32,000 bases of DNA from Candidatus Baldrarchaeum yapensis (GCA_016840465.1 JAEOSH010000003.1:60176-92175), one strand, 5' to 3'; counted from the stretch's first letter, positions 9,494-30,832 are shown. Notes: generated from the letters alone by a model not told the origin. Program-made: numbers and translations.

Positions 9494-9525
9494 CAAAAAA
9501 TAACAATTTTTTCCTTTTGTTTGTC
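9494..9525. terminator. Candidate bidirectional oligo-T terminator between convergent operons
   Basis: A6 (T6 on the minus strand) at 9495-9500, and T6 plus further T-runs at 9507-9520, between two convergent stop codons. Confidence 0.45.
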
Positions 9526-10098
9526 TTATTCTTTCTGCTTTTTATTTTGTGCAAAGAATCTTTTTGAAATGACGTCAAGAGCCCTTTTGACAAACTCCTT
9601 TTTGCCAGAAATCCTAATAGTATTTTCACTTTCTGCCTCAATCATCGCTCCCGTCTTTTTTTCAATACCCTTAAGCTCGTCGAAACTAGCTGCTCTCGGC
9701 AGTACTATCCTCACAAAGTCGACGTCTTTATCTCGTGGAATTCCCGGTATAAATGTCCCACCAAGTTGTGGTAGTGGTACGCGGAATTCCCCGCTCTTGG
9801 CCTTCCTTAAAAGCTCCTTCCATTTATTAACGTAGTCTTCTCCAAGAACCGTAGATGCATGTTCAAAGAGAATCTTCCTTGCACTATCTAAGAGCATATC
9901 AATATCTGCAATGAATGCCTCCTCCGTGGCTTTACCCCTCGCGAGATGAAGTTGCCAATGAGAAATTAAAAGACGAGAGTGGCGAAGATCTGCATTCACC
10001 TGTAGTGATGGTGGAACTCCCTTTGAGGTAAGATCTCCCAGCATCTTATTCAAAACAGTCCATATGGAGTATCTTATTTCAAGGTCCCTCTGAGACAA
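9526..10098 (-). CDS. DUF2096-family protein (conserved in methanogens and relatives)
   Basis: Recalled family pattern: W-x-VL..DL..KG...DLR; GEDYV..W..LL.KA..GE; F.PG.PR...VR; C-terminal ISG...VKRAL. Lies 9 bp downstream of hdrB. Confidence 0.7.
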   Translation of the reverse strand: MSQRDLEIRYSIWTVLNKMLGDLTSKGVPPSLQVNADLRHSRLLISHWQLHLARGKATEEAFIADIDMLLDSARKILFEHASTVLGEDYVNKWKELLRKAKSGEFRVPLPQLGGTFIPGIPRDKDVDFVRIVLPRAASFDELKGIEKKTGAMIEAESENTIRISGKKEFVKRALDVISKRFFAQNKKQKE

Positions 10099-10107
10099 GG
10101 TATCACC

Positions 10108-10998
10108 TTAGAGACCGATTTTTCTCAATAGAGGTCTCACGGGTATAATATTGTACTGAAGACCTAATACATGTGGCGATGCACCAAGTGCCAACATTAT
10201 CAACTGGGTTATAAACACAACCGGAAGTCCTAACTTCACTCCCATACGGTCCTCTATTTCCTTCTGTCCCCTATCGAATTGCAGGTGGCAGAACACGCAA
10301 GGTGTGGTCAGGCAATCGGCGCCTGCTCTCATCATGTTCTGAACTTTTTCCCTCGTCATGTCTAAACTCACATCTATCGATCCTGCTCTCACCCCGCCAC
10401 CCGCTCCACAGCACATAAGCTTATCCCTGTAATCTATACTTATGGCGTTCGTGGTTTCGATAATCCTGTCAAGGATCGTTGGTCGCTCGGGATGCTCATG
10501 CCGCCTAACCTCTCTGGGCTTTAAGAAGTGGCAACCATAATGAGCGGCCACTTTCAAGCCGCTGAGATCTCTTTCTATCTCGCTCCTTATTCTATTCAGC
10601 CCTATGTCATGCTCTATCACTTCAATTACATGCTTGACCTCTATGGTCCCCTTAAACTCTTTGTCGATGTTCTTTAGGATTTCATTAACCCACTCCCTGA
10701 GTTCCTTGTTCTCCTTTAAAAGATGATTTGCCTCCTGCAAACTTCCATAGCAGCCGTTACAACATGTTACTATGTCAGCGCCTAGACTCTCGGCAATGCA
10801 CAGGTTTCTTGCAGCTATAACGATCCAAGTGTAGAGATCAAAGGATCCAAACACTCCGGGTGCTGGGCAGCAGGAGGCTCCCTTCATATCTAGAAGTTCT
10901 ATGCCATATCTTGTCATAAGGTATCTTGTCGAGGCCTCAACGCCCGGGTACCTGTTGGGCATTATGCATCCGAGGAAAAACGCATATTTCTTCGCCAT
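10108..10998 (-). CDS. hdrB: Heterodisulfide reductase subunit B, canonical methanogen-like (copy 1)
   Basis: YAFFLGCIMPNRYPG, SCCPAPG, TCCNGC, HYGCH, LMCCGAGGG and TPCVFC: both non-cubane [4Fe-4S] CCG ligand sets are complete. Confidence 0.97.
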   Translation of the reverse strand: MAKKYAFFLGCIMPNRYPGVEASTRYLMTRYGIELLDMKGASCCPAPGVFGSFDLYTWIVIAARNLCIAESLGADIVTCCNGCYGSLQEANHLLKENKELREWVNEILKNIDKEFKGTIEVKHVIEVIEHDIGLNRIRSEIERDLSGLKVAAHYGCHFLKPREVRRHEHPERPTILDRIIETTNAISIDYRDKLMCCGAGGGVRAGSIDVSLDMTREKVQNMMRAGADCLTTPCVFCHLQFDRGQKEIEDRMGVKLGLPVVFITQLIMLALGASPHVLGLQYNIIPVRPLLRKIGL

Positions 10999-11568
10999 TT
11001 AACCACTCTCCTGATAACCAACCATTTGATCGAATTTCATAATTTTTATCAACTTTCTGACTTCATCCAGCGCCTCGGGATAAGAATGAACCGTGGGTGG
11101 CAATTCACTTAAACCTAAAGCCTTTCTGATCTCTTTAAACTCGTCGGTGATCGGAACTGCGTGACCAAATCTTATAAGAAGCCTTGCAACTCGTTTGTGT
11201 TGCTCTTTCATCCTGCCGCTTTTTGCAGCAATGTTTCTGATCACTCTGATGATGTCCGTAGTTCTGACGCCGCGCGGACACCTCTCATAACACGTATAAC
11301 AGGTGGTGCAGTACCAGAGCTCTTCACTTGAAAGCACCTCATCCTTGAGCCCAAGAAGAGCCTTGCGCATAACTAGACGCGTCCTATAAGCAGTTCTTCT
11401 GCCAGATGGGCAACTTCCACTGCACGTTCCGCACTGGAAACATGCAGTGATGGTTTCCATATGTTCTCTTCCGAAAATCTTGGACCCGTACTCTATTATC
11501 TCCTCAACAAACTTAGGATCGGTTTTTTCGAGTTGTATGACCTGTTCGGAAGCACTCATCGCGGACAC
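10999..11568 (-). CDS. hdrC: Heterodisulfide reductase subunit C (copy 1)
   Basis: CFQCGTCSGSCP and LWYCTTCYTCYERCPRGV; its stop abuts the hdrB ATG. Confidence 0.96.
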   Translation of the reverse strand: MSAMSASEQVIQLEKTDPKFVEEIIEYGSKIFGREHMETITACFQCGTCSGSCPSGRRTAYRTRLVMRKALLGLKDEVLSSEELWYCTTCYTCYERCPRGVRTTDIIRVIRNIAAKSGRMKEQHKRVARLLIRFGHAVPITDEFKEIRKALGLSELPPTVHSYPEALDEVRKLIKIMKFDQMVGYQESG

Positions 11569-11679
11569 CCATTACGGATCAGCCGGGAATTACATACCCG
11601 GTGTCCTTTATTTGTTCTTTCCCAAGAAAAGAGGTATCCTCCAGTTATTCTGGTTATTACGTAAAAAATGTATTGGGGG

Positions 11680-12774
11680 TCAATGCGCATTATACGCGGT
11701 CAAAATCGCGTTAACAAAGTCTTCAGGTGAGGTGCCGCTAGTTCTTATTTTTTTACTCTCAAAGACTTCCACAAGTGCGGACTTTAGGAGGTTCTTATCT
11801 AAGCGTAGACCCTTTAATGAGTTTTCCAAATCGGCTATTGCATCTCGAGGCTCGAGCCAAAAGTCCCCGCTTATCAAAATATCCCTGATCACTTCATCCT
11901 CCATCTCGAAAGTCACCCTGATTAAACCACCAGGGGACTTATAGACCCCCTCAACGATGTAAGTATCGCCTGCCACCTTAACTTTCCTTGTAGCAAGATT
12001 CGGATGTCTCTCCTCGTGTATAAATAGCCACTCATGCGAAAGATACTGCTCTCTGAGTTCCCGTATGATTTCCTCCTCTCTTCTCGTCAATTCACCTCTT
12101 TCAAGCTTAACATTGAGGTACTTCTCAAAATTCTTCACTAACAAGTCAACAACTCTGCTTCTATCCGGTACGTACCCTAACTCTCTCCTCAATGAGGTGA
12201 CCCTTTCCTTCAGACTTTTTGCAAACTTGTCCCTGAACTTCTCACTGGGTACCCTGAGAACCTTAACCATTATATCGTAATTAAAGTCGAGAATTATGTT
12301 GCCGACGAAGACAAATGCTTTCTCTATTTCCCCACCGCCGTTTCCACTGATCTTCCTACCGTTAACCTCTATGTCATTAACGGGTCTAAAGTACGCGTCG
12401 ACCCCTAACTCCCTATACGTTTGCACAGGAGCCCTTAAGAAGTACTCAAATCTACCAACGGTGTCCGCGGGGACATCTGACCAGTCCTGGGGAATCACCA
12501 GTTGATAAAATATCTGATTTTCGTCTAAGTATACGGCCCCGCCGCCAATAACTCTCCTCACTATTGGTATTCCCATTTTCCTGCAAAATTCTATGTCTAC
12601 CTCCTTTGAAACCTCCTGAAAATACCCGCAGGAAACCAGAGGTGATGCCGGCCAGTCTATGAAAAGTGTCGGTGGAATGTCCCCCTCGCTTAGAGCAATC
12701 GCCGCTGCATGCCATATTACCTGCGTCAAAACGGGATCTATCGGCCCAAGAAAAACGTATCGCAGCTTCTTCAT
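11680..12774 (-). CDS. lplA: Lipoate-protein ligase, catalytic plus C-terminal accessory domain (Lpl(AB), resembling the sLpl type)
   Basis: RRVIGGGAVYLDENQIFYQ, RPVNDIEVNGRKISGNG and GNIILDF; C-terminal domain YKSPGGLIRV...ISGDF. Confidence 0.92.
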   Translation of the reverse strand: MKKLRYVFLGPIDPVLTQVIWHAAAIALSEGDIPPTLFIDWPASPLVSCGYFQEVSKEVDIEFCRKMGIPIVRRVIGGGAVYLDENQIFYQLVIPQDWSDVPADTVGRFEYFLRAPVQTYRELGVDAYFRPVNDIEVNGRKISGNGGGEIEKAFVFVGNIILDFNYDIMVKVLRVPSEKFRDKFAKSLKERVTSLRRELGYVPDRSRVVDLLVKNFEKYLNVKLERGELTRREEEIIRELREQYLSHEWLFIHEERHPNLATRKVKVAGDTYIVEGVYKSPGGLIRVTFEMEDEVIRDILISGDFWLEPRDAIADLENSLKGLRLDKNLLKSALVEVFESKKIRTSGTSPEDFVNAILTAYNAH

Positions 12775-13217
12775 CTCAACTCTCCCTTCTTAAGCTTCTC
12801 CTCGTCCTCCTTGATCCACTTCTCTATGTTCTCGACACCATGAATTAGATTTTTCAAGTCCTCCTCTAAGTTCGTCGGTTCTATTACCGCGATCCACCCC
12901 TCACCGTACGGATCCTCATTTAATAACTCGACTCTTTTCTCCTTAACGAGTTTTTCATTCACCTCTATGATCTTCCCGCTGACTGGCGAATACAGAGTTC
13001 CGCGCCATTTCCCACTCTCAACAACCGCAAGAGGCTTTCCTTGCTCGACATGCCGCCCAACGGGGAGTACTCGTATTGCTATTGCTCGCCCTAAGGCCTG
13101 TTGCCCCCAGTCATCTATTCCCACACGAACCTTCCCATTTTCAATACGTGCCCACGTGTGCCTTGGATGATAGTAGAGATCCTCGGGGAATTCATATTTT
13201 CCGAGTATTTTTACCAA
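12771..13217 (-). CDS. gcvH: Glycine-cleavage-H-like / LbpA-like lipoyl carrier protein
   Basis: LYYHPRHTWAR, VRVGIDDWGQ, lipoyl-Lys motif VVESGKW, YSPVSG, LLNEDPYGEGWI. TTG start at 13217 after GGAGGT (ORF track gives 13232). Overlaps lplA by 4 bp. Confidence 0.9.
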   Translation of the reverse strand: MVKILGKYEFPEDLYYHPRHTWARIENGKVRVGIDDWGQQALGRAIAIRVLPVGRHVEQGKPLAVVESGKWRGTLYSPVSGKIIEVNEKLVKEKRVELLNEDPYGEGWIAVIEPTNLEEDLKNLIHGVENIEKWIKEDEEKLKKGELR

Positions 13218-13262
13218 TATGCCGACCTCCACAATTTCTGAAGAGAAGTCACCGCATTGAGA

Positions 13263-19499: not shown

Positions 19500-20005
19500 A
19501 CCGATTCACTTCCGCCAGTCTGCCTGGTCCTGCTTGCTGATGCGCTCCTAACAATTTGTAAAGCAAATCTTCGTCTTTTTACATTTTCTGCTTATTCTGC
19601 TTATTATTTTAGCAATCTTCACAAATAACTGAATTGCCTAAAGAACTTCTCATAATATTCGATGAAACTTAGTACCTCTAAACTACTTACCAGTGTATGG
19701 ACTCTTTACGGGGAGTACTGGCTTTGTATGTCAAGTCGAACCCTAATAACTTCAGTAACCATTCTCCTATCAGCTATAAGGCGTGCACTGCACATCCATT
19801 GTAGTTCATTTATAGCGGATAGGATGGCCATAGAAAATAGTGCGTTGAGAACAAGCGTCATACGCCAAATAGGTCTCTAAAATGTTTATTTTTAGTTTCG
19901 GGTTTCTAAGCTGGAAGTCCTAGGTTTAAATTCCAACAAGCTCACCGATTTGTTTAGGGAGTTTAAATAAAAGGAAAATATGAAATTTGCACTGCTAGAA
20001 AGATA

Positions 20006-20944
20006 TTAAATTTTCACCCAGATTTCTTTAATCTTTTCGAGCAGAGGTTGCGTACTTATTGCGTGTAGATGTAAGCATAACTGGGTACGAGGATTTAATC
20101 CCAAAACTAGTCCTATTAACTGGCTGAGGTGGAGAACGGGTATTTGAAAATCTATCTTCCCACTTTTGTACAGATCTCTTTGGCAAATATCAAGCCTGTA
20201 CATACACGCAGGGCACCACACGACTATCATATCTGCACCGACTCTATGGATACTTTCTAACTTCCTTATGCATATATTTTCCGATAACTCGTAATGGACT
20301 CGTGACTGTATGCCGGATCCCCCGCAACACAAGTTTTTCTCCGAGTAATCCACGACCTCGGCCCCTAAATCGCTTAATAACTCGTCTACAAATCTTGGGT
20401 TCTTGTGGTCATCGAATTTCCTGAACATCAACTCGCGACGATAATGACATCCATAATGCACTGCAACTCTCAGCCCTTCTAGCGAGAATCTCATCCGACG
20501 CAGAATTTCATCCTTAAATGCATAAAACATCTCAGGTACATGGAAGATGTCAACATCTAAGTCGTTTACATCATCGGGAGTCCGACCAATTATCTCAGCT
20601 ATCCTCCGAGCCAGATCCTCGTTATTACTTAGTTCTCGAAGAGCATGATTAAACGCAGTGTAGCATGCGTTACAAACAACAAGTACTGCCTTGCAAGCGA
20701 GACTCTTTGCTAGGAGCATATTTCGGGCGCAGAGGGAAACCATGACTTCGGGTGGCGACATATTCCAAAAGAATGTGGGAAAGCCGCAACATGTCTGGTC
20801 ATCTGACATCAGGAAGGGTATGTCGAGAAACTTGAGCACAAAGTACGTGGCCACCTCTATCCCAGGATGGGCCTGCACGCAAGGCCGGAAGAGGAAGAAG
20901 GGCACCGTCTCTCTAATAATGCTGAAGTCCCTATCATTAGACAT
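20006..20944 (-). CDS. hdrB: Heterodisulfide reductase subunit B-like, divergent (copy 2)
   Basis: RPCV, QTCCGFP, VVCNAC, AVHYGCH, LCCGGSG, WCPAC: CCG-domain cysteines are retained, but the flanking motifs differ from copy 1. Confidence 0.88.
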   Translation of the reverse strand: MSNDRDFSIIRETVPFFLFRPCVQAHPGIEVATYFVLKFLDIPFLMSDDQTCCGFPTFFWNMSPPEVMVSLCARNMLLAKSLACKAVLVVCNACYTAFNHALRELSNNEDLARRIAEIIGRTPDDVNDLDVDIFHVPEMFYAFKDEILRRMRFSLEGLRVAVHYGCHYRRELMFRKFDDHKNPRFVDELLSDLGAEVVDYSEKNLCCGGSGIQSRVHYELSENICIRKLESIHRVGADMIVVWCPACMYRLDICQRDLYKSGKIDFQIPVLHLSQLIGLVLGLNPRTQLCLHLHAISTQPLLEKIKEIWVKI

Positions 20945-21470
20945 TTCTACTCACCTTTTTCATGTATTCTAAGGCTTCTGACTTCTCAAATATGCGCTTA
21001 ACGTCTCTAAGCGCATCTTCTGAAACAGACCTTGGTGGTATACCGACCTCCCTCTGGAGATTTATCAGATTATCTGTTAGCGGAACAGAAAGCCCCGTTT
21101 CCATGATGTTTTCCGCGAATTTTATTATCTTGCTCATCTTTAATAGCGTGTTTATGTCCTGTAAGAGCACGCCAGCGTATCTGAGATTTATTATGAACAA
21201 CGCCGGGTTTATCGACCGCGGGCACTTCATCGCGCATTCAAAACACAGCAGGCAGTCCCAAATGTTCTCACGTTCAAATATATCACCTAATGAGCATAAA
21301 AGGAAACGCCCGACGATCCTTCGGATATTAAAGTTGGAAAAGCGTGCCGCTGGGCAATCGCCGACGCACATCCCACACTGGTAGCAGGTTTCTATATTGC
21401 CCGCTCTTTTTCTCAAGTCCTCCTTTATTGCCCGTTCCACGGATTCGGGGATCGTCTGCGATCCTCTCAA
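20937..21470 (-). CDS. hdrC: Heterodisulfide reductase subunit C-like (copy 2)
   Basis: CYQCGMCVGDCP and IWDCLLCFECAMKCPRSI; overlaps hdrB2 by 8 bp. Confidence 0.9.
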   Translation of the reverse strand: MRGSQTIPESVERAIKEDLRKRAGNIETCYQCGMCVGDCPAARFSNFNIRRIVGRFLLCSLGDIFERENIWDCLLCFECAMKCPRSINPALFIINLRYAGVLLQDINTLLKMSKIIKFAENIMETGLSVPLTDNLINLQREVGIPPRSVSEDALRDVKRIFEKSEALEYMKKVSRNV

Positions 21471-21650
21471 TACACTTCACACCTTAAGGGGGCGTCGTGA
21501 TATAGTTACATAACGCAATTTAAATAATATGGCATGATTGAAAGTATGCTTAGCGGAATATGAGGCGATTTGCGTGATTACTCTCGCATGTACAAAGTTT
21601 TTCGTAGGATCTCCAAGAATTTGTGAGAGAAGATTATAGGAGGTGTCCAT

Positions 21651-22046
21651 TTGTCAATTTTCAAATACTTAAAGCCAAAAATCACGTATAGGGTCATTAT
21701 AGCTAGAATGCGTCCGAAAGAGGAACGTTCCGAGTACGATAGACTCTCAAATGGATATATGGAAATTGCCGCAGTTGCATATTTTAATCCGAGTGATTAC
21801 GACTCCCTGATAGGTAAGGAGGGTGGTAATGTTAAGGTGAAGGGCAGGGGAGGGGAGGTAGTACTTAAACCGCTAAAGGACGAAAGAGTTCCCAAGAACA
21901 CAATAATCATACCGCCGGGACCTTGGGCTAATGCGTTGATCGATGAGAGTGGCCATGGCGGCATTCCTCATTTTAAGTCCTTAAATGTCGAAGTGATGGT
22001 TGTCAAAGAGCCCGTTACCAAGGTAGAAGAGATTTTAAAAAGGTGA
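21651..22046 (+). CDS. fwdD: Formylmethanofuran dehydrogenase subunit D-like (molybdopterin-dinucleotide binding domain)
   Basis: 'AYFNPSD', 'VKVKGRGGEVVL', 'IIPPGPWANAL', 'GIPHFKS'; TTG start after AGGAGGTG. Confidence 0.85.
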   Translation: MSIFKYLKPKITYRVIIARMRPKEERSEYDRLSNGYMEIAAVAYFNPSDYDSLIGKEGGNVKVKGRGGEVVLKPLKDERVPKNTIIIPPGPWANALIDESGHGGIPHFKSLNVEVMVVKEPVTKVEEILKR

Positions 22047-22050
22047 TGAT

Positions 22051-23601
22051 ATGTCATCTGGAGCGCCTGAAAAGCTTATTATAAAAGGCGGCGTGGTCGT
22101 GGATCCGATTAATGAAATTCGAGGAGATAAACTCGATATTTTCGTTTCTAATGGAAAGATTTGTGAAGAATTCGATGAAAAGAATGCAAAGATAATAGAT
22201 GCGGCTGGAAACATCGTTGTTGCCGGGGCCATCGACCCTCATGCTCATCTCATCACAACAGGATCATTTCTGAGATACTTGGTTCCTGTAGCCCGCAAAG
22301 CACCAACTTATGAAATAATAAGAGAGTATGTGAGGCTGGGATGGACGACGATATCGCTGGTCGGTCCCTCGATTCCCGAAGTACTGCATGTACACACGAT
22401 CTTACGTAATATTGGTTTCATGGATTACGCGATATTTCCCCGCATCGACAATGATCAGATGTTTCTTTCTCTTGTCAGAACGCTGGACATCGCCGGACTT
22501 GCGACCTATTTGAGCATCATCGCTAAGAACTTACAAACGCTCGGTTTTTACATGGTACCGCCTGGCATCCTAGAGGGACAGGTCGCAGGACAAGATATAA
22601 AATCCTTGAAAGAAAAAATCAGAGTGCTGGACATCTCTCCCCTCGAAGCAATTATGGCACTTTTCGATTCCATAAAGAGAATAGGGTCTTTTGTTCCGGT
22701 GCAAATAGAGGCGCCTGGACTGACAAATAGCCCCATCGAAGAATTAAAGGAGATAATTGACGTACTTGGTGATGCAAGTATATTTGTGCCTCATTTATCG
22801 TATCATCTTCTGGGAGAGGACATCAGCACTGAGGAATTGCTGAAGCTTTTCGAGGGTGGCAAAATCTTCGGGGACATCGGAGTGTGCGTAGATAGAAGTA
22901 TTTCGGTAGCGCCCATAAAAAGGGTAGATGGATACAAGAATATACGGTGGTTTGCATCTTATGCTTGTGAAATGGAATCGTTTTCCCTCTATGGTCTTTT
23001 GGACGAAGAGTTTGCAGAGAAGCAGTCTTATGAAATTCTCAAAAACGCCTTAATGCTAGCAATTAAGGGAGGTAGGAAGGATAATTTGTCAATTTCAGGA
23101 GATATTCCACTATGCTCAGAACCTAAAGACCTTGCGATATTTATGTGTTCAATTCTTAGTAAGGAGTGCAGAAAGGAGGTTATAGGTCGGCATGCCACAG
23201 ATGACCTGTCAGCATTACCGGATGTCAATCTTATAGACGTCATACAAATGACCAGGGCGTCTCCTGCTAAAGCTTTAGGAATCGTAGAGAAAAAGGGACA
23301 TTTAGGAATCGGCGCAGATGCAGATATCGTAATCTATGACTTTGACATAGAGAGGCAGGACCCGTCGAGAGACTGGAAGGCATTCATGAAAGCGCTCCTG
23401 AAGCCGAAATATGTCATAAAGAGTGGTCAAGTAGTAGTGGTGGACGGCGAAATTACGAGTTCCGCCAATTCTTCTCCCATAATTGGCCGGGCAAAAGATA
23501 TCGACCAAAAAGAGTTCGAAGAATTTATTAACAGAGTGAGGAGAACCACAGGCCTTTACTACTCTTGCGTCGTTGAGAATAGATACAGAAGTGTCATGTG
23601 A
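22051..23601 (+). CDS. fwdA: Formylmethanofuran dehydrogenase subunit A-like amidohydrolase-fold protein with a degenerate metal site
   Basis: FwdA-like ends ('IIKGGVVVDPIN...DIFVSNGKI', 'IIDAAGNIVVAGAIDPHAH', 'TRASPAKALG...KGHLGIGADADIVIYD', 'YVIKSGQVVVVDGEI'); the core is strongly diverged. Confidence 0.8.
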   Translation: MSSGAPEKLIIKGGVVVDPINEIRGDKLDIFVSNGKICEEFDEKNAKIIDAAGNIVVAGAIDPHAHLITTGSFLRYLVPVARKAPTYEIIREYVRLGWTTISLVGPSIPEVLHVHTILRNIGFMDYAIFPRIDNDQMFLSLVRTLDIAGLATYLSIIAKNLQTLGFYMVPPGILEGQVAGQDIKSLKEKIRVLDISPLEAIMALFDSIKRIGSFVPVQIEAPGLTNSPIEELKEIIDVLGDASIFVPHLSYHLLGEDISTEELLKLFEGGKIFGDIGVCVDRSISVAPIKRVDGYKNIRWFASYACEMESFSLYGLLDEEFAEKQSYEILKNALMLAIKGGRKDNLSISGDIPLCSEPKDLAIFMCSILSKECRKEVIGRHATDDLSALPDVNLIDVIQMTRASPAKALGIVEKKGHLGIGADADIVIYDFDIERQDPSRDWKAFMKALLKPKYVIKSGQVVVVDGEITSSANSSPIIGRAKDIDQKEFEEFINRVRRTTGLYYSCVVENRYRSVM

Positions 23602-24901
23602 GTTTTTTGAATTTCCCCCGCTCTATAAGTCTTCTTATTCCTATTTTCGATATCTCGTCCTCTAGACGCTTTAACCTCTGTTGTAACTCGTCTTTGACAT
23701 CTTCAGGTACACTTGGAACTTCTCGTAACTCTTCCGCTGGAATTCTCTCCTCAATTTCAATTTTCGCATACCGCTGATGCTTTGGTGTTTCACGATTGAT
23801 AGTTGCATCTATTATTGCTCTTTTCCTAGACCCTGCCCACAGAGATGGAACCTCCGGATCAATAATGTTCACCGATGTTATCTCGACTTTAATTATATTT
23901 TCCGGGCATGCTCTCTCACAAGACCCGCAGAATATGCATAGACTCTCATTAACGGCTATCTTGCCTTCCCTTTCTGGGTCCTTTGGAATATACCAGCAAT
24001 TTACGGGACATATGTTTATACAGGCCTTACAACCAAGCGGATCGCACTTCTCTATATGGAAAAGCTTTATCTTTCCCTCGAAGCGCTTTTTTACCTCAAT
24101 GGCGTTTCTGGGACAAGTATTGGTACACCATCCGCAGTAAATGCAGTTTTCCTCGTTTATAACCACGTCTCCCGTGATGCGTGGTATTTCTATTTCTCTT
24201 TCAACTGGTGTTATGCACTTCACCTCTATTGCCTCATCAGGACAAATCTCTGCACAGAGGCCACAAAAATCACATTTCTCCAAGTTCACACTTATTGAGG
24301 AGGCAAAAGTGAGATCTGAGGGATCCGGCTTTTTCCACTCAATTACTATTGCATCGCACAATTCTGCACAAATACCACAAAATGTGCACTTTTCTTCGTT
24401 TATTTTTATTTCACCTTCGATTTTTTCGGGCATCTTCTTATATCTTACCAGATCTTCCTTCTTTTTAAGTTGAATTCTGACCTCTATACACCTCGTTGGG
24501 CAAATAGTCTCGCAAATCCTACAAGGAATGCACTTCTCTTTATCAATTCTTATACTTCCTACAATCCTCGGATACTCTTTCAGTGTCTCGATTCTCTGAC
24601 CATTTATTTCGAAAATTATCGCATTGATAGGACAGATTTCGGCACAAAGACCGCAAAACTGACATTTATCTTGATCAAAGGTTATTTTCGCAAATTTTCC
24701 ATCCATTTTCCCTGTAGCTATCTGGGGTATCGGTCCAAGAGAAATAGCACCCGTTGGGCATACCTCTACACATAATCCACATCCGACACACGTGTCCGTA
24801 TTGTAAATTAGCCTTTTCTTATAATTACGCCCAATCCACGTAACTATCATTTCGTTCTCCGTGAAGTCCAATAATATTTGGGGAGAAAACTCATCCGGCA
24901 C
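23594..24901 (-). CDS. fwdF: FwdF-like polyferredoxin, 8x[4Fe-4S]
   Basis: Eight ferredoxin-type motifs: CVGCGLC, CQFCGLC, CIPCRIC, CTFCGIC, CDFCGLC, CIYCGWC, CDPLGCKAC, CIFCGSC. Overlaps the end of hdrA-mvhD by 11 bp. Confidence 0.85.
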   Translation of the reverse strand: MPDEFSPQILLDFTENEMIVTWIGRNYKKRLIYNTDTCVGCGLCVEVCPTGAISLGPIPQIATGKMDGKFAKITFDQDKCQFCGLCAEICPINAIIFEINGQRIETLKEYPRIVGSIRIDKEKCIPCRICETICPTRCIEVRIQLKKKEDLVRYKKMPEKIEGEIKINEEKCTFCGICAELCDAIVIEWKKPDPSDLTFASSISVNLEKCDFCGLCAEICPDEAIEVKCITPVEREIEIPRITGDVVINEENCIYCGWCTNTCPRNAIEVKKRFEGKIKLFHIEKCDPLGCKACINICPVNCWYIPKDPEREGKIAVNESLCIFCGSCERACPENIIKVEITSVNIIDPEVPSLWAGSRKRAIIDATINRETPKHQRYAKIEIEERIPAEELREVPSVPEDVKDELQQRLKRLEDEISKIGIRRLIERGKFKKLT

Positions 24902-27272
24902 TTTTCATCACCAACTCGGAACCTATCGGACCCAACTTCTTGAGTTCTTCAACAAACTCCCTGACTATGTTTGCGAATCTCTCTCCTTCGGATGCCGAAG
25001 TGCTTGCGATTTTCAATCTGCGTGGATTAATCCCCACATTCTCAAGATACTTTTTGAGCGCAGAAATTCGTCTCTCGGCCTTTGAAAAACCTGTCCTGTA
25101 ATGGCAATCCTGAGGATGACAACCAACCACAAGGACTCCATCAGCTCCCGCCTTAAACGCCTCTAATATCATGAGGGGACTGACCCTTGCTGTGCACATG
25201 ACCCTTATCGGTCTAATGTTGGTTGGGTATTGTATTTTTGTGGTTCCTGCGAAATCAGCAGCCGCATAACCACACCAATTGCATAAGAATGCAACTATGA
25301 GGGGGAATTCGCATTTGTTTTCCAATGTTGCATGTATTTGGGCAATTATCTGTTGATTTGTGAAGTAAGGCATATCTAACGCGCCTGTGGGACAAGCGGC
25401 AACACAGGCGCCACATCCCAAGCAGGCACTTGAGTTTATGATAACCCCTTTCTCTTTATCGAATGTCAAAGCCCCCCAATCGCAGGCCTCCTCACAAAGC
25501 CTGCATCGCTTACATAGATCTGGATTATACGTCGGGACGTAGGGATCCAATTCTATTTTTTCGTGTAGCACAAAGTTCGCTGCATCGAGTGCGGCAGATT
25601 TGGAGTGTGCAACCGTGTCCTGAATGTCCTTAGGACCTTGAATTGTACCCGCAATGTAAATTCCCTGTATCATGGTCTCTGAAGGGGCAAGCTTCGGATG
25701 CCGCTCGAGGAGAAACCCATCAGAGGATTGAGAAATTCCTAGCATTCGTGCCAAGTCCTCGGTATCAGAGGGAGGAACCAGTCCCACGGACAATACCACG
25801 AGATCAGCATTTATTTCCATGATTTCCCCAGTAAGCGTGTTCTCTGCTCTAACTATGAGATCATCGCCGTTTTCATTTGCGGTGACCGAACTCGCCCTAC
25901 CTCTTATTATCTTTATTCCGAAATCTCTCATTGCTTTCAGCAAGAACTCCTCATACCCCTTTCCATACGTTCGTATATCCTGGAAGAGTATGAACACCTC
26001 GGCATCAGGTATCCTTTCCTTAATGCAAATAGCCTCCTTTATGCTGGCCGTACAACAGATCCTAGAACAATAGGGGTTGCCTACGCTTTCGTCCCTACTC
26101 CCAACACACTGGATGAACACGATCCTTCTGGGTTCCTTTCCGTTCGATAACCTGACCACACGTCCGCGCGTTGGGCCACTGGGGCTGAGCAACCTTTCGA
26201 GTTCTAGTGATGTTATAACATCGGGATACCTTCCGTAGCCGTACTCGCTCTTAAGTCGGGCATCAAAGGTTTCATAACCCGTGGCCACAATAATTGCACC
26301 AACATGAATCCTTATCCTTTCTGGCGTTTGATTGAAATCTATTGCATCGCGTTCACACGCATCTTCACAGTTTCTACAACCTATGCAATGATCTGGGTCT
26401 ATCACCGCGAGCAGAGGGACTGCTTGCGGAAACGGTAGATATATTGCCTTTCTTGGCCTCAGTCCCATGTCAAACTCGTTAGGGACCTCCACAGGACATG
26501 TTTTTGAACAAATTTCTATGCATCCGACGCATTTCTCCTCATTTACGTAACGTGGTCGTTTCAGTATCTCTACCTCGAAGTCCCCCGGTCTTCCCTTAAT
26601 GCTTGTTACCTCCGATAACGTTAGGACTTTTATCATAGGATGCTCCGAAACCTCGCTCATGAGAGGGGCCAGTATGCAAATTGAGCAGTCAAGAGTCGGG
26701 AAAAGCTTGTCGAGCATAGCCATATGCCCGCCCAGCGTCGGTTGCTTTTCGACGAGATAAACCTCAATTCCGAGACTTGCAAGGGAGAGTGCAGCCGTTA
26801 TTCCAGCGACTCCTCCGCCTATTACTAGAACTCTTTTCTTCGCACGTGCGTATCTGCGCTGTATTGGGGTTAGAAGCCTTGCCTTTTCGATTCCCATCTT
26901 TATCAGAGCAATAGCCTTGTTTGTCGCGGCGGTTGGAGAATACATGTGAGGCCAAGAGCATTGTTCACGAATATTCACAAATTCTACCAGAAACGGATTC
27001 AAACCCGCCTCTTCTGCTGCTCTTCTAAAAAGTCTCTCATGAAGCCGCGGGCTGCATGCCGCTATTACAACTTTTGATAATTTTTCCTCTGCTATTTTCC
27101 TTTTCAACTCATTAAGCCCTTCCTTGCTACATAGGTACGTGTGATCCATCACGAAAACGTTGGGGGCCCTCGCTATTTCGTTTAGAACCCGCTTGATGTC
27201 TATTACTCCGGCAATGTTCGATCCGCAATGGCATATGAAAACTCCTATTTTGTCGCTGTCCATATACTTCAT
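24891..27272 (-). CDS. hdrA: Heterodisulfide reductase subunit A fused to C-terminal MvhD [2Fe-2S]
   Basis: IGVFICHCG, AACSP, NIREQCSW, FAD motif VIGGGVAG, DKLFPTLDCSIC, inserted ferredoxins, ELERL, IQCVGSRD, YCSRICC...IKE, C-terminal ferredoxins; then the MvhD motifs FLCNWCGY, RVMCTARV and GCHPQDCHY. Confidence 0.96.
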   Translation of the reverse strand: MKYMDSDKIGVFICHCGSNIAGVIDIKRVLNEIARAPNVFVMDHTYLCSKEGLNELKRKIAEEKLSKVVIAACSPRLHERLFRRAAEEAGLNPFLVEFVNIREQCSWPHMYSPTAATNKAIALIKMGIEKARLLTPIQRRYARAKKRVLVIGGGVAGITAALSLASLGIEVYLVEKQPTLGGHMAMLDKLFPTLDCSICILAPLMSEVSEHPMIKVLTLSEVTSIKGRPGDFEVEILKRPRYVNEEKCVGCIEICSKTCPVEVPNEFDMGLRPRKAIYLPFPQAVPLLAVIDPDHCIGCRNCEDACERDAIDFNQTPERIRIHVGAIIVATGYETFDARLKSEYGYGRYPDVITSLELERLLSPSGPTRGRVVRLSNGKEPRRIVFIQCVGSRDESVGNPYCSRICCTASIKEAICIKERIPDAEVFILFQDIRTYGKGYEEFLLKAMRDFGIKIIRGRASSVTANENGDDLIVRAENTLTGEIMEINADLVVLSVGLVPPSDTEDLARMLGISQSSDGFLLERHPKLAPSETMIQGIYIAGTIQGPKDIQDTVAHSKSAALDAANFVLHEKIELDPYVPTYNPDLCKRCRLCEEACDWGALTFDKEKGVIINSSACLGCGACVAACPTGALDMPYFTNQQIIAQIHATLENKCEFPLIVAFLCNWCGYAAADFAGTTKIQYPTNIRPIRVMCTARVSPLMILEAFKAGADGVLVVGCHPQDCHYRTGFSKAERRISALKKYLENVGINPRRLKIASTSASEGERFANIVREFVEELKKLGPIGSELVMKSAG

Positions 27273-27379
27273 CTCTTGAAAATAGTGGATTGTGTGCCAC
27301 CTTGTTGAAAGTAAATAAATGGAACCATATACGTATTTCTGACACTGACCTCCGGTTCATATTCCAGAGGTGTAAGAGT

Positions 27380-27844
27380 TTGAAGCCGTCTCCTCTCGAG
27401 ATATATAAACTACTTCCGAAGACAAATTGCAAAAAATGTGGTTTGCCAAACTGTATGGCATTTGCCGTGAGATTACTGAGCGGTCAGGCAAAAATAGAGG
27501 ACTGCCCCGACCTCGTAGAGAGGGAGGAGTTCAGAGAGAATTATGAAAAACTTAAGGAGTTGCTGGGAGAAAGACCAGCAGCAGAAGTATCATTACCGAG
27601 AATAGATAATGAGGAGGCATGCAATGGATGTGGTATCTGTGTGGTGGTTTGCCCTGCGAATGCTAGGGCAGACCCGGAGGTTGGTAGCGGAAAGGGGGCA
27701 TCCCGAAAGGAAGGTCTCATTTTCGTGGTTGTTAATGGAAAAGTCAAGATAATGGATATAAGTAAGTGCAGGAGACAGGAAGATTTGACAACGTGTCGTG
27801 TGTGCGAGGAGTTCTGCCCAAATAATGTCATAAAAATAGGTTAA
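27380..27844 (+). CDS. fwdG: FwdG-like ferredoxin with an N-terminal small Fe-S domain (AcsC/RnfB N-terminal type)
   Basis: 'LLPKTNCKKCGLPNCMAFA...CP' followed by CNGCGICVVVCPANA...GKG and C..TTCRVCEEFCP. TTG start at 27380 after GAGGTG (ORF track gives 27290). Confidence 0.75.
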   Translation: MKPSPLEIYKLLPKTNCKKCGLPNCMAFAVRLLSGQAKIEDCPDLVEREEFRENYEKLKELLGERPAAEVSLPRIDNEEACNGCGICVVVCPANARADPEVGSGKGASRKEGLIFVVVNGKVKIMDISKCRRQEDLTTCRVCEEFCPNNVIKIG

Positions 27845-27866
27845 AACATAGGAGGTATGCAAAAAT

Positions 27867-29159
27867 ATGAGATCATTTCACAATGTCATATGTACGGGCT
27901 GTTCTCTCCTCTGTGATGACATACAGGTCACTGTCGAGGGCTCGCACATAAAAGAGATTTTAAACGCATGTTCAAAAGGATGCTCAAGGTTCGTTTCGGA
28001 TCCAAAAGAGGGCAGATTATTGTCTCCCTTAATAAAGAGGAATGGTCGAGCCGAAAAGGCAAGCCTCGAGGACGCCGTAAAAGAGACCGTTGAAATACTA
28101 AAGACTTCCGATAGACCTCTGCTTTATGGCTGGAGCAACTGCGTATCGGAAGCTCAAATACTGGGGATAAAAATAGCACGAAAAATCAGAGGAGCAATAG
28201 ACGCAACATCCAGCTTTTGCCAAGGCGTCGTATACCTCGCAGCGTGCGAGGCAAAGGGGTATCACACAGTATCCTTGGGCGAGGTATTTAACAGAGCGGA
28301 TCTACTCGTGTTTTGGGGATGTAACCCTGCTGATGCTCATCTCAGGCACTTCAGTAGGTATACTTTCTTTCCACGTGGTAGATACAGACAAACGGGGTTT
28401 GAAGAGCGAGATAGTATCCTTATCGACGTTAGGGAAAGCGGATCAGCAAAAATTGCAAGGACACCATTGATCATAGAGCCAGAAACTGATTACGAGTTAA
28501 TACAGACAATAAGGGCGATTATTAAGGGACACGAAATTCTACATGGAAAAGTCTCCGGTGTAGACTTTGAAAAAGTAAAATCCATTGCGGATAAAATGGT
28601 CAACTCCAGATTTTGTGTAATATTCTATGGGCTGGGCCTATCCGGAACGAAAGGTACTTATAGAAACGTCTCCGCCCTTCTCTCCCTCGTTGACGACATA
28701 AACAGGAGAGGAACCCGTTGCGCAGTAATTCCTATGGCGGGGCATTTTAACATGGTTGGATTTAACAGGGTGCTCCTCGAGTTGACCGGATACCCGTATG
28801 GTGTGGACTTTCATGACGGTAGCGCTTACTGGAACCCAGGTGAAACCACCGCTTTTGATCTATTGAAAAAGGAAGAAGTCGATGCTCTCGTGGTCGTAGG
28901 TGCGGATCCTGTCTCCCACTTTCCGCGGAAAATTGCAAAGTACATATCAGAAATTCCAACTATCTACATAGGGCCTCACGTGACGCCCACCTCAGCCGTA
29001 AGCAGAGTCTCTATACCGGCGACAATAGCCGGTATAGAACAGGAGGGGGTTGCGTATAGACTCGATGGTCTTCCGCTAAAACTTAAAAAGATAGCAGATC
29101 CGCCGGATGGCGTAATTCCCGACGTAGCCATACTTGAGGCGATCCTTAAGCGCCTATAG
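27867..29159 (+). CDS. fwdB: Formylmethanofuran dehydrogenase subunit B-like W/Mo-bis-MGD protein with altered active-site residues
   Basis: CTGCSLLCDD/ACSKG [4Fe-4S], LYGWSN, SSFCQG, NRADLLVFWGCNP..AHLRHFSRY, PMAGHFN, VVGADP..HFP, YRLDGLP. Confidence 0.88.
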   Translation: MRSFHNVICTGCSLLCDDIQVTVEGSHIKEILNACSKGCSRFVSDPKEGRLLSPLIKRNGRAEKASLEDAVKETVEILKTSDRPLLYGWSNCVSEAQILGIKIARKIRGAIDATSSFCQGVVYLAACEAKGYHTVSLGEVFNRADLLVFWGCNPADAHLRHFSRYTFFPRGRYRQTGFEERDSILIDVRESGSAKIARTPLIIEPETDYELIQTIRAIIKGHEILHGKVSGVDFEKVKSIADKMVNSRFCVIFYGLGLSGTKGTYRNVSALLSLVDDINRRGTRCAVIPMAGHFNMVGFNRVLLELTGYPYGVDFHDGSAYWNPGETTAFDLLKKEEVDALVVVGADPVSHFPRKIAKYISEIPTIYIGPHVTPTSAVSRVSIPATIAGIEQEGVAYRLDGLPLKLKKIADPPDGVIPDVAILEAILKRL

Positions 29160-29181
29160 GTAACATTGCACGGGAACGAAA

Positions 29182-30144
29182 ATGAAGCTAAATCCCCCAA
29201 TAAGTATTAAAGATGCTAAGAAGATTCTGTCTGCACCGGATCAGGAGTTAAAGGCTCTCATGGAACATGCGAGGAAAGTCGCGGAGGATATCCATGGGCC
29301 GAACATTACTTTCTATGTACCAGGTAATAGCTTCCCAGCAATTTCGATAACTGGAACGAAGTGCTGGCTGCTATGTAAGCATTGTGTTGGGCATTACTTA
29401 AAGGGAATGATACCAGCAACAACTCCAGACGAGTTTCGAGAACTCTGTGTAAGACTCTGGAAAAGGGGGGCAAAGGGCTGTCTCATAAGTGGTGGTTACA
29501 CACGCTTCGGTGCACTTCCAATAGAATCTTTCTTTGAGGCAATAAAGTATGTGAAGAAAAACACAAAATTGCTACTAAATGTCCATCCCGGGTTTTTATC
29601 ACGTAATTCAATAATGCGTTTGGTGCAATGCGGCATCGATGCGGCATCGATAGATGTTGTGGGAAGTGAAGAAACAACAAAACAAGTATATGGCATCAGT
29701 AAGGATCCTCAAAGCTATGATAAATTATTATGCGAATTTAAAACGGCAGGAGTACCAATATTAGCCCCACACGTCTGTATAGGATTACATTTTGGTAAGC
29801 TACTCGGGGAACTTCATGCTCTTTCAATAATAAGGAATCATGAACCATCGGTTCTCGTATTCATAATCTTTACACCGACTCGTGGAACTCCCATGGAGGC
29901 GTGCAGTCCTCCGAACATTAAGGATGTTATCAGGCTCATTGTAGCCGCACGTCTGATGATGCCAGGTGTTCCGATATCCCTAGGATGTATGAGACCTAAG
30001 GGAACGTATAGAAGGGTTCTAGACGAAGTGTGCATGAGGGCAGGCGTTAACAGAATAGTTATACCGAGTGGGGTTGCATTAGATGTGGCTCGCGATCTGG
30101 GCTATGAGGTGTTAAGTAAAGATTTATGTTGTGTTTTCGCATGA
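29182..30144 (+). CDS. lipS1: Radical SAM protein, LipS1-type archaeal lipoyl synthase subunit
   Basis: CxxxCxxC (CWLLCKHC) preceded by FPAISITG; GCLISGG; LNVHPG; PHVCIGL; ISLGCMRP; C-terminal LCC. GC(M/A)R and CC are the auxiliary-cluster motifs I recall for T. kodakarensis LipS1. Confidence 0.78.
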   Translation: MKLNPPISIKDAKKILSAPDQELKALMEHARKVAEDIHGPNITFYVPGNSFPAISITGTKCWLLCKHCVGHYLKGMIPATTPDEFRELCVRLWKRGAKGCLISGGYTRFGALPIESFFEAIKYVKKNTKLLLNVHPGFLSRNSIMRLVQCGIDAASIDVVGSEETTKQVYGISKDPQSYDKLLCEFKTAGVPILAPHVCIGLHFGKLLGELHALSIIRNHEPSVLVFIIFTPTRGTPMEACSPPNIKDVIRLIVAARLMMPGVPISLGCMRPKGTYRRVLDEVCMRAGVNRIVIPSGVALDVARDLGYEVLSKDLCCVFA

Positions 30145-30350
30145 GGCCTCGAAGACGGTTCTCCGAATAAAATAACCGCATCCGTTGGGCAAACAGCCTT
30201 ACACACTCCGCATTCTAAACATGCATCTGGTTCTTTCACAACCGCCTTTGACGGGCATCCGACAAGTTTAATTGCCGGAGGAACTGATGGACAAAGGTCT
30301 ACGCACTTACCGCATCCGGAGCACTTCTCTGGTATTATGATTGGTGGCAA
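30102..30350 (-). CDS. 2x[4Fe-4S] ferredoxin
   Basis: CSGCGKCVDLCP and CLECGVCKAVCP; TTG start. Confidence 0.88.
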   Translation of the reverse strand: MPPIIIPEKCSGCGKCVDLCPSVPPAIKLVGCPSKAVVKEPDACLECGVCKAVCPTDAVILFGEPSSRPHAKTQHKSLLNTS

Positions 30351-30373: not shown

Positions 30374-30832
30374 CTACGTTTTTCCGAGAAGTTGCTTAAA
30401 CTCTTTTAACAGGTCCTTGTATAGTTGCCCTCTAGAGGGAGATGGAGGAGCTTTAGGAGCTGGAGGTGGTGAGGGTTGAGGCGCTGCTGGCGGGGGTGAA
30501 GGCGTAGTGGTTTGAGAAGATTGTGTTTGTGCAGGGCTCATGGAAGCAGGTGAAGCGGATGGAGAAGGTGGAATCGTGACTTGGCTTTGAGCCCGAGGCA
30601 TTGCCGGTGCTGTGGCATATTGAGGTGTAGCTTGTGGCTGGGGTGATTGTTGCGGCGATACTCTAGTTTCGAGCCCTCTCAACCTCTTCTCTATGGAATC
30701 TATCCTTTGGGAAAATTCATTGCGCATTTCCATCATTATTTCTCCGAGTAATGGTACGATTATATTTCTAACTACCTCCAACATCTGTTCCATCACTATT
30801 TTCTGTACCCTTTTTTCTAGATCCTCGGACAT
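30374..30832 (-). CDS. Hypothetical protein: N-terminal coiled coil, Pro/Gln/Ser-rich linker, C-terminal amphipathic helix
   Basis: ATG start, coding-like composition, same strand as the ferredoxin and 23 bp upstream of it; about 75 aa low-complexity P/Q/S/A tract. Confidence 0.75.
   Translation of the reverse strand: MSEDLEKRVQKIVMEQMLEVVRNIIVPLLGEIMMEMRNEFSQRIDSIEKRLRGLETRVSPQQSPQPQATPQYATAPAMPRAQSQVTIPPSPSASPASMSPAQTQSSQTTTPSPPPAAPQPSPPPAPKAPPSPSRGQLYKDLLKEFKQLLGKT

Follow-up and report, generated by a model that had tools for sequence, protein, structure and literature searches.

In the solved Fdh/Mvh-Hdr-Fmd supercomplexes (M. hungatei, 7BKB; M. marburgensis and M. maripaludis; PMC13580544, PMC13518236), the polyferredoxin FwdF takes the low-potential electron from the C-terminal ferredoxin domain of HdrA and hands it through FwdG and the FwdB cluster to a tungsten- or molybdenum-pterin (W/Mo-pterin) (PMC13580544). 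A related gene set is present in Methanosarcina acetivorans, in which fwdG2B2D2 lies beside hdrA2 (MA2868) and a polyferredoxin gene (MA2867) (Rohlin & Gunsalus 2010, PMC2838876; Yan et al. 2017, PMC5296606), and HdrA2B2C2 of this organism has been proven to be a bifurcating heterodisulfide reductase that depends on ferredoxin and F420H2 (PMC5296606). Furthermore, a "Fwd-Hdr" cluster has been reported in Candidatus Methanonezhaarchaeum fastidiosum YNP3N (Kohtz et al., Sci Adv 2025, PMC12700198); according to the searched text of that paper, this organism has a second FwdBD encoded next to HdrABC, FwdG and an FwdF polyferredoxin, and relies on a separate FwdABCD for the Wood-Ljungdahl pathway. 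Here, we analyzed a 10-kb cluster of hdr and fwd-like genes at positions 20006–30350 of a stretch of 32,000 nucleotides (hereafter, the window) from Candidatus Baldrarchaeum yapensis (GCA_016840465.1, JAEOSH010000003.1:60176-92175). The window belongs to contig C84 of a 2.27-Mb assembly that is 96% complete. Genes were called from a listing of open reading frames (ORFs) together with Pfam and NCBIfam profile scans of the window, and every gene named in the original prediction, which had been made from the sequence alone, was recovered at its coordinates and on its strand.

How does this cluster compare with the described systems? Homologues of HdrA, HdrBC, MvhD, FwdF, FwdG and FwdB/D/A of the supercomplexes are all encoded in the window, but there is no Mvh/Fdh donor and no FwdC, MvhD is fused to HdrA, the FwdG-like protein carries an extra domain of the corrinoid/iron-sulfur protein (CFeSP) type, and the active sites of both FwdB and FwdA are remodelled (the remodelled proteins are hereafter FwdB* and FwdA*). 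Four Methanosarcina and Methanohalophilus loci (L082, L095, L103 and L106) have a similar divergent layout, in which FwdF-HdrA2::MvhD faces away from FeSG-FwdB*-FwdD, FeSG being the FwdG-like iron-sulfur (Fe-S) protein. The window HdrA is of the HdrA2 type by its match to NF040770, as is that of M. acetivorans, and the Methanosarcina-type FwdB also lacks His119 and Arg288 (motif C-L-V or C-Q-V). On the other hand, the Methanosarcina module has no FwdA* and its hdrC2B2 genes are unlinked, whereas both are part of the cluster in the window. Methanosarcina is, moreover, a methanogen with the coenzyme M-coenzyme B heterodisulfide (CoM-S-S-CoB) and F420, whereas mcrA was not found in the 96%-complete B. 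yapensis genome; therefore, the disulfide and the electron donor probably differ from those of Methanosarcina. For the YNP3N cluster, formate oxidation has been proposed, and active-site residues are not discussed in the searched text of the report (PMC12700198). Compared with what that text describes, the window comes from an Asgard archaeon that is not a methanogen, its cluster includes an FwdA-like gene, and its FwdB* has kept neither of the formate-site residues. The original prediction had suggested that the system may be undescribed; a cluster of this type has been in print since 2010 (PMC2838876) and again in 2025 (PMC12700198), and it is uncharacterized rather than unknown. What is particular to the window is the presence of hdrB2C2, an FwdA-like gene and all the other parts within one 10-kb cluster, together with the occurrence of a second, canonical Fwd-HdrA::MvhD cluster in its genome, and what is new is an orphan-like FwdA* with a rebuilt metal site, specific to this window.

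Besides the altered Hdr-Fwd cluster of the window, the B. yapensis genome holds a separate, canonical one. This canonical cluster is on contig C56, which carries cdhA/cdhB, encoding carbon monoxide dehydrogenase/acetyl-CoA synthase (CODH/ACS), as well as ftr, a four-cluster polyferredoxin gene, fwdG, fwdD and a canonical fwdB (648 bits, with Cys-His-Arg), a second hdrA::mvhD (837 aa), more hdrA/mvhD genes and, beyond these, fwdA (860 bits) and fwdC (303 bits). Here, fwdG-fwdD-fwdB is convergent with the gene of the 837-aa HdrA::MvhD and stands between CODH/ACS-ftr and the further hdrA/mvhD genes, with fwdA-fwdC ~5 kb on (loci L151 and L152). Since a complete canonical Fwd, ftr, CODH/ACS and their own HdrA::MvhD are all encoded on C56, the second set in the window is dispensable for the Wood-Ljungdahl pathway. 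The original prediction had noted that the window has no fwdC, mvhAG, fdhAB or ftr, and indeed no fwdC, ftr, fdhA or Mvh-type hydrogenase was found there. Across the genome, the sole fwdC above cut-off is the one after the canonical fwdA on C56, and neither fdhA nor a Mvh-type hydrogenase was found, so that the fused MvhD is left, as predicted, without an MvhAG or FdhAB donor as far as a 96%-complete draft allows. One soluble [NiFe] hydrogenase was found, a four-subunit NAD(P)-type enzyme on contig C96, and membrane-bound group-4-like [NiFe] hydrogenases are also present, one of them inside the window.

What, then, might the altered cluster do? The reading that we prefer, with a probability of roughly 0.45, is that it encodes a second, neofunctionalized W/Mo-pterin Fwd module, composed of FeSG, FwdB*, FwdD and, in this lineage, FwdA*, which receives the low-potential electrons of a bifurcating HdrA2B2C2 core. 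Part of the evidence for this reading comes from FwdB* (27867–29159, + strand), a FwdB paralog that scores 480 bits against TIGR03129 (cut-off 327.8) and matches M. wolfeii FwdB (5t5i_B) with an E-value of 1.6e-113. Alignment to 5t5i_B shows that the [4Fe-4S] cysteines (C9, C12, C16 and C35), the W/Mo-ligating Cys118 and the GxNP/DxR/xDP dinucleotide-binding motifs are retained, while His119 is replaced by Gln and Arg288 by Ala (Ala291 in its own numbering). The AlphaFold2 (AF2) model of FwdB* has a mean confidence score (pLDDT) of 91.6.

These replacements recur throughout the FeSG-linked family. We compared 104 distinct FwdB homologues, 76 of them encoded right after FeSG (that of the window included) and 28 not adjoining FeSG. 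Arg288 is missing from all 76 FeSG-linked proteins (75/75 without the one of the window), its place being taken by Gly, Val, Ala, Ile, Leu and others, and position 119 is mostly Gln or Leu. Cys118, by comparison, is retained in 67/76, and the four [4Fe-4S] cysteines are present in all but one N-terminally short ORF. Canonical FwdB proteins, on the other hand, have Cys-His-Arg in 28 of 28 cases. In an unrooted maximum-likelihood tree, a branch with 99% support splits the FeSG-linked from the canonical set, and FwdB* of the window is on a long branch with no starred placement. Genomes that share the GTDB phylum of the window have FwdB* sequences that group tightly with named Borrarchaeum and Sifarchaeum sequences, in keeping with an Asgard affiliation. 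Homologous clusters with canonical residues would have spoken against a special role for the window's cluster; Arg288 is present in 0/75, and the fwdC of the genome belongs to the separate canonical set. A literature search on Fwd2/fwdG2B2D2/FwdBD and on Asgard Hdr-Fwd clusters returned, among the papers searched, no report of the loss of Arg288 or His119 in this FwdB paralog family. The "Molybdop" protein of PMC12054007 is a different one, FdhA-like and without the Cys.

With the metal ligand, FwdD and the dinucleotide motifs kept while the second shell is consistently replaced, a changed substrate appears to be favored over decay. Because His119 and Arg288, second-shell residues of all the formate/CO2 enzymes in the family, are replaced by Gln and Ala, the reaction of FwdB* is most likely not CO2/formate interconversion.

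The FwdD-like pterin-dinucleotide-binding subunit is encoded at 21651–22046 (+ strand; PF01568, E 1.2e-6), from a TTG start after GGAGGTG, and scores 67 bits against NF042908, below the cut-off. An fwdD gene accompanies the module in 7/7 loci checked (L022, L032, L065, L080, L082, L085 and L103). In the window, fwdD sits in the operon of fwdA*, and fwdB* in that of FeSG, both divergent operons flanking hdrA2-fwdF. Since FwdD and FwdB* are thus split over two operons on either side of hdrA2-fwdF, the operons must cooperate.

FeSG is listed as an ORF at 27290–27844 (+ strand; PF04060, E 4.5e-15, plus ferredoxin motifs), but its true start is probably the TTG at 27380, behind GAGGTG, which would give a protein of 154 aa, as in the homologues; with this start, the AT-rich divergent intergenic region to hdrA2 is 107 bp long. 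The gene had been predicted to be an fwdG, which holds for its C-terminal half (5t5i_G, E 1.6e-9). The N-terminal 45 residues, however, resemble the [4Fe-4S] domain of the corrinoid/iron-sulfur protein AcsC/CdhE (4djd_C, E 1.6e-10), and FeSG is therefore a chimera in which a CFeSP-type [4Fe-4S] domain precedes a FwdG-type 2x[4Fe-4S] domain, with three clusters in all.

The core to which this module would be wired is encoded on the − strand. HdrA2, an HdrA::MvhD fusion of 793 aa (24891–27272), scores 1106.2 bits against NF040770 (cut-off 1100) over residues 8–786, with the MvhD part at the C-terminus (PF02662, residues 659–781), and matches solved HdrA (8rvu_a) with an E-value of 8.8e-227. In the alignment to solved HdrA, the ELERL at residue 357 and the CCTASIKE at residue 406 coincide with the Glu and Lys of the flavin adenine dinucleotide (FAD) site, as the original prediction had proposed; the Glu and Lys by the bifurcating FAD are E356 and K409 in M. 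wolfeii numbering (PMC12054007). The fwdF-type polyferredoxin gene (23594–24901) overlaps hdrA2 by 11 bp. Its product would carry ~8 [4Fe-4S] clusters, having 35 Cys and seven CxxCxxCxxxC motifs, and it is called FwdF-type because, although its NF042909 score of 293 bits is below the cut-off of 375, it matches solved FwdF/FmdF chains end to end (residues 27–350 against 9sw6_H, 5t5i_F and 7bkb_K, E 3.5e-65 to 7.8e-62). HdrB2 (20006–20944; PF02754 twice, E 2.4e-24) has CCG motifs at residues 52 and 206, and HdrC2 (20937–21470), whose gene overlaps hdrB2 by 8 bp, has two CxxCxxCxxxC motifs for 2x[4Fe-4S]. Both fall under the CoB-CoM equivalog cut-offs (HdrB2, 190 bits against 345 for TIGR03288; HdrC2, 87 bits against 160 for TIGR03290). 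HdrB2 homologues occupy the equivalent position in loci L067, L080 and L164.

FwdA* (22051–23601, + strand) is a highly divergent FwdA-type amidohydrolase that scores 184.5 bits against TIGR03121, for which the cut-off is 392.75. Four of the six metal ligands are kept, namely H64 and H66 (HxH), H248 on strand 6 and D351 on strand 8, and the other two are exchanged, with Y167 in place of the carboxy-Lys and E220 in place of the strand-5 His. The AF2 model (pLDDT 80.4) has a FwdA-type fold with FwdA 5t61_G as its top PDB match (TMq 0.81, 21% identity), and the strands bearing Y167, E220 and H248 are positioned as the alignment predicts; H64, H66, E220 and D351 could form a mononuclear metal site. 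Searches of 5.8 billion proteins and of 40 related genomes returned no homologue with more than 30% identity. Borrarchaeum-type FwdA has fully canonical ligands, and the ligand pattern of the window is unique. Lokiarchaeia-type FwdA* (loci L033–L064 and others) keeps the binuclear-site HHKHHHH in 31/31 sequences, and in the same 31 the catalytic strand-8 Asp385 is replaced by Asn and the next residue, His386, by Phe or Tyr, a conserved change that, at the level of the alignment, parallels that of FwdB*. Together, the exchanges in FwdB* and FwdA* bear out the non-standard catalytic end that the original prediction had proposed.

When FwdB* and FwdA* were submitted to complex prediction, the pair scored 0.93, and the best of three controls scored 0.00; the 0.93 mark was reached by 58/80 solved complexes and by 2/110 mismatched pairs. 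Contact agreement between the runs was at least 85%, and the partner pLDDT was at least 84. As Fwd complexes have already been solved, this predicted interface is read as showing likeness to those complexes rather than binding by this copy.

We also scanned species-representative genomes with the FeSG alignment and obtained at least 580 relatives; the counts that follow rest on the best 80 loci. A FwdB homologue directly follows FeSG in 74 of them, and such FeSG-FwdB* pairs occur in Asgard archaea, Methanosarcinales, Archaeoglobi and Thermoproteota. HdrA2-FwdF is immediately upstream of the pair in 13/80, these loci coming from Borr-, Hod-, Hermod- and Sif-archaeal metagenome-assembled genomes (MAGs), Hecatellales, Methanohalophilus and Methanosarcina. 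Borrarchaeum has the order of the window, FwdD-FwdA / FwdF-HdrA2 / FeSG-FwdB*, and a Hodarchaeota MAG (L067) shares with one from Hecatellales (L080) the order HdrB2-HdrC2-FwdD-FwdF-HdrA2 / FeSG-FwdB*. Methanosarcina and Methanohalophilus have FwdF-HdrA2 / FeSG-FwdB*-FwdD. In a genome of the same order as that of the window (G002), FeSG-FwdB*-HdrA2-FwdF are on one strand, with FwdD and HdrC2B2 alongside and with no FwdA* or LipS1 in the cluster. Lokiarchaeia-like MAGs have FeSG-FwdB*-FwdD-FwdA*, and two further genomes (G010 and G020) and MAG S9B3_HD70 have FwdD-FwdA*-FeSG-FwdB*. FwdC is absent from every homologous module that we looked at. The gene set is, consequently, syntenic in relatives and not unique to the window, and the Hdr-polyferredoxin-Fwd wiring that had been predicted is backed by synteny conserved over three archaeal phyla and by the one-strand order of G002.

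Two of these loci deserve a further remark. The module of S9B3_HD70 (L032), whose record reads "Thermoproteota archaeon isolate S9B3_HD70", falls together (100% support) with the modules of G010 and G020, two genomes from the GTDB phylum of the window; either the module was transferred or the phylum label of the record is in doubt. On a complete chromosome of the Lokiarchaeia type (L085), a Mrp/NUBPL-type iron-transfer P-loop NTPase is encoded at 8891–9742 (− strand), divergently upstream of FeSG-FwdB*-FwdD-FwdA*, and may be a maturation factor.

On the preferred reading, and by homology with the solved Mvh/Fdh-Hdr-Fmd supercomplexes, the FAD of HdrA2 would split an electron pair. The high-potential electron would pass to the non-cubane clusters of HdrB2C2, where a disulfide would be reduced; this disulfide is likely one other than CoM-S-S-CoB, because the organism, with no mcrA found, is a non-methanogen. 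The low-potential electron would exit through the C-terminal ferredoxin domain of HdrA2 and run through FwdF, then over the three FeSG clusters to the [4Fe-4S] cluster in FwdB*, and finally to a Cys118-ligated W/Mo-bis(pyranopterin guanine dinucleotide) held by FwdB* and FwdD. FwdA* would dock on FwdB* as canonical FwdA does, with at best a mononuclear metal site. The flow could also be reversed (confurcation).

A further-reaching form of this idea is possible, and we hold it only tentatively: Fwd2 (FeSG-FwdB*-FwdD, joined by FwdA* in Asgard archaea) would be an unrecognized pan-archaeal W/Mo enzyme that carries out a very low-potential reaction other than CO2/formate interconversion, powered directly by HdrA2 bifurcation, and the genome of the window would have recruited a unique, mononuclear-type FwdA descendant. 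An Fwd2 enzyme with a recruited FwdA* would imply a two-step reaction, and candidate substrates would be a carrier of the N-carboxy or N-acyl type, or a C1 compound that contains sulfur or nitrogen.

Several points weigh against a neofunctionalized enzyme. FwdB* of the window is the longest branch of the FwdB tree (0.73), and FwdA* has the longest branch of the FwdA tree, at 2.6 changes per site; these long branches could reflect relaxed constraint rather than a new function. Most Lokiarchaeia-type loci have no adjacent Hdr, so the link to Hdr is frequent but not obligatory. For any member of the paralog family, quantitative PCR of fwdB2 in M. acetivorans (PMC2838876) is the only expression or biochemical evidence found. 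Pterin binding by FwdB*/FwdD is suggested by motifs. Finally, Cys118 is lost in 9/76 FeSG-linked proteins, being Ser in Methanotrichaceae, Glu in the Hermodarchaeum type and Ile or Val in the Sigynarchaeum type. The family may have become non-catalytic several times over, or the metal may be Ser-ligated in Methanothrix; a purely structural or relay role is a viable explanation in some lineages.

Could FwdB*, FwdD and FwdA* be non-catalytic here as well, and serve as an Fe-S (perhaps pterin) wire or dock between Hdr, the polyferredoxin and a partner such as CODH/ACS? We consider this doubtful, although it accounts for the changes of catalytic residues in both active sites, and although loci without Cys118 (L098, L102, L108 and L109 of Methanotrichaceae, L070 and L081 of the Hermodarchaeum type, and L073 and L088) keep all four [4Fe-4S] cysteines. 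The resemblance of the FeSG N-terminal domain to the cluster domain of the corrinoid/iron-sulfur protein would also suit such a dock. There is, furthermore, a precedent in the Fwd-derived FhcABCD of Methylorubrum extorquens (PDB 6S6Y), the FwdB homologue of which is past CO2/formate redox chemistry and FhcA of which is the fifth-best structural match of the FwdA* model. However, FhcB has lost the metallopterin (PDB 6s6y; PMC11656701), whereas FwdB* keeps the four cluster cysteines and Cys118, and Fhc has FhcC and the Ftr-type FhcD, whereas the module of the window has neither. The retention of the metal-ligating Cys118 in the window and in most FeSG-linked homologues argues against a mere wire, as does that of a separate pterin-binding FwdD in all loci checked; the dinucleotide-binding motifs would be superfluous for it, and a wire needs no FwdA-like partner with the conserved ligands seen in the Lokiarchaeia type.

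Alternatively, FwdB*D might oxidize internal formate and donate the electrons to HdrA2, from which ferredoxin and a disulfide would be reduced. This is what the searched text of the YNP3N report proposes for a cluster of like type (PMC12700198), and with MvhAG and FdhAB not found in the genome, the W/Mo module is the sole nearby-encoded candidate for a mid-potential donor. We nevertheless regard it as unlikely: the His119 and Arg288 that are conserved in formate dehydrogenases and in the canonical FwdB proteins are missing here, and Arg288 is missing throughout the FeSG-linked family; moreover, in the solved supercomplexes, the FwdF/FwdG/FwdB chain is on the low-potential output of HdrA and not on the MvhD input (PMC13580544). 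An ordinary isoenzyme, that is, a second, metal-specific (W versus Mo) formylmethanofuran dehydrogenase with the normal conversion of CO2 to formyl-methanofuran, is highly improbable, since the passing of the TIGR03129 equivalog cut-off by FwdB* and the frequency of several Fwd/Fmd isoenzymes in archaea (PMC11656701, PMC2838876) are set against the lack of FwdC in this and every homologous module, a FwdA* far under its family cut-off with 2/6 metal ligands gone, the loss of His119 and Arg288 from FwdB*, and a full canonical set elsewhere in the genome.

Two genes at the downstream end of the cluster were also considered as members of the system. The radical-SAM (S-adenosylmethionine) lipoyl synthase gene lipS1 (29182–30144, + strand; NF053742, 270 bits, cut-off 230) begins 22 bp after fwdB*, and in view of this gene the original prediction had suggested a possibly sulfur-related reaction. 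No other locus examined has lipS1 beside the module, an adjacency confined to this genome, and we rejected lipS1 as a member. Since the genome encodes gcvP and a GcvH elsewhere, together with two more GcvH homologues and lipS2, lipS1 has an ordinary role; it is probably a passenger, and the suggested link to sulfur is not supported. Lipoate-dependent sulfur oxidation of the sHdr-LbpA type does not fit either, as lipS1 adjoins the module in this genome alone, gcvP and lipS2 are elsewhere, and in the relatives of the same order the GcvH-like gene is apart from both lplA and hdrCB. The small ferredoxin (30102–30350, − strand; 2x[4Fe-4S], Fer4 families at E 6e-12, two CxxCxxCxxxC motifs) is convergent with lipS1 and overlaps it by 43 bp. 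It shows no conserved adjacency to the module in other loci, and its membership in the system is uncertain. The two ORFs that flank the cluster, at 19662–19880 (+ strand) and 30374–30832 (− strand), matched no Pfam family.

Elsewhere in the window (9526–13232, − strand), a GcvH-like lipoyl carrier is encoded in one operon with the lipoate-protein ligase gene lplA, second copies of hdrC and hdrB, and DUF2096; the genes of a membrane-bound hydrogenase are split into two halves, one on either side of this operon. The GcvH-like gene is beside lplA in some Asgard genomes, for which the flanks of 1.5 kb are too short to show hdrCB past lplA, and it adjoins lplA or hdrCB in 0/4 genomes of the same order. 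Were Hdr of a non-methanogen to use a lipoyl protein as its disulfide substrate, this would be of interest; the gcvH-lplA-hdrCB operon has no bearing on the Fwd-like module. In a search of sequencing runs, this stretch was present in eight DNA runs, from hydrothermal-vent, sediment and seawater metagenomes, and no RNA run containing it was found.

The gene set is widespread in archaea, and its altered Fwd copy is probably without CO2 or formate chemistry. This matters because genes of the FwdB paralog are routinely annotated as formylmethanofuran dehydrogenase and, as such, feed into metabolic reconstructions of Asgard archaea, Bathyarchaeia, Archaeoglobi, anaerobic methanotrophic archaea (ANME) and Methanosarcina. 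Should its members be unable to act on CO2 or formate, such reconstructions count the wrong enzyme, and the published model of a formate-oxidizing Fwd-Hdr complex becomes doubtful. The question can be tested directly, as M. acetivorans carries orthologous genes and is genetically tractable. The family is, furthermore, a candidate to catalyze a new low-potential reaction that is powered by flavin-based electron bifurcation, and it bears on what HdrABC reduces, and what feeds HdrABC, in non-methanogenic archaea.

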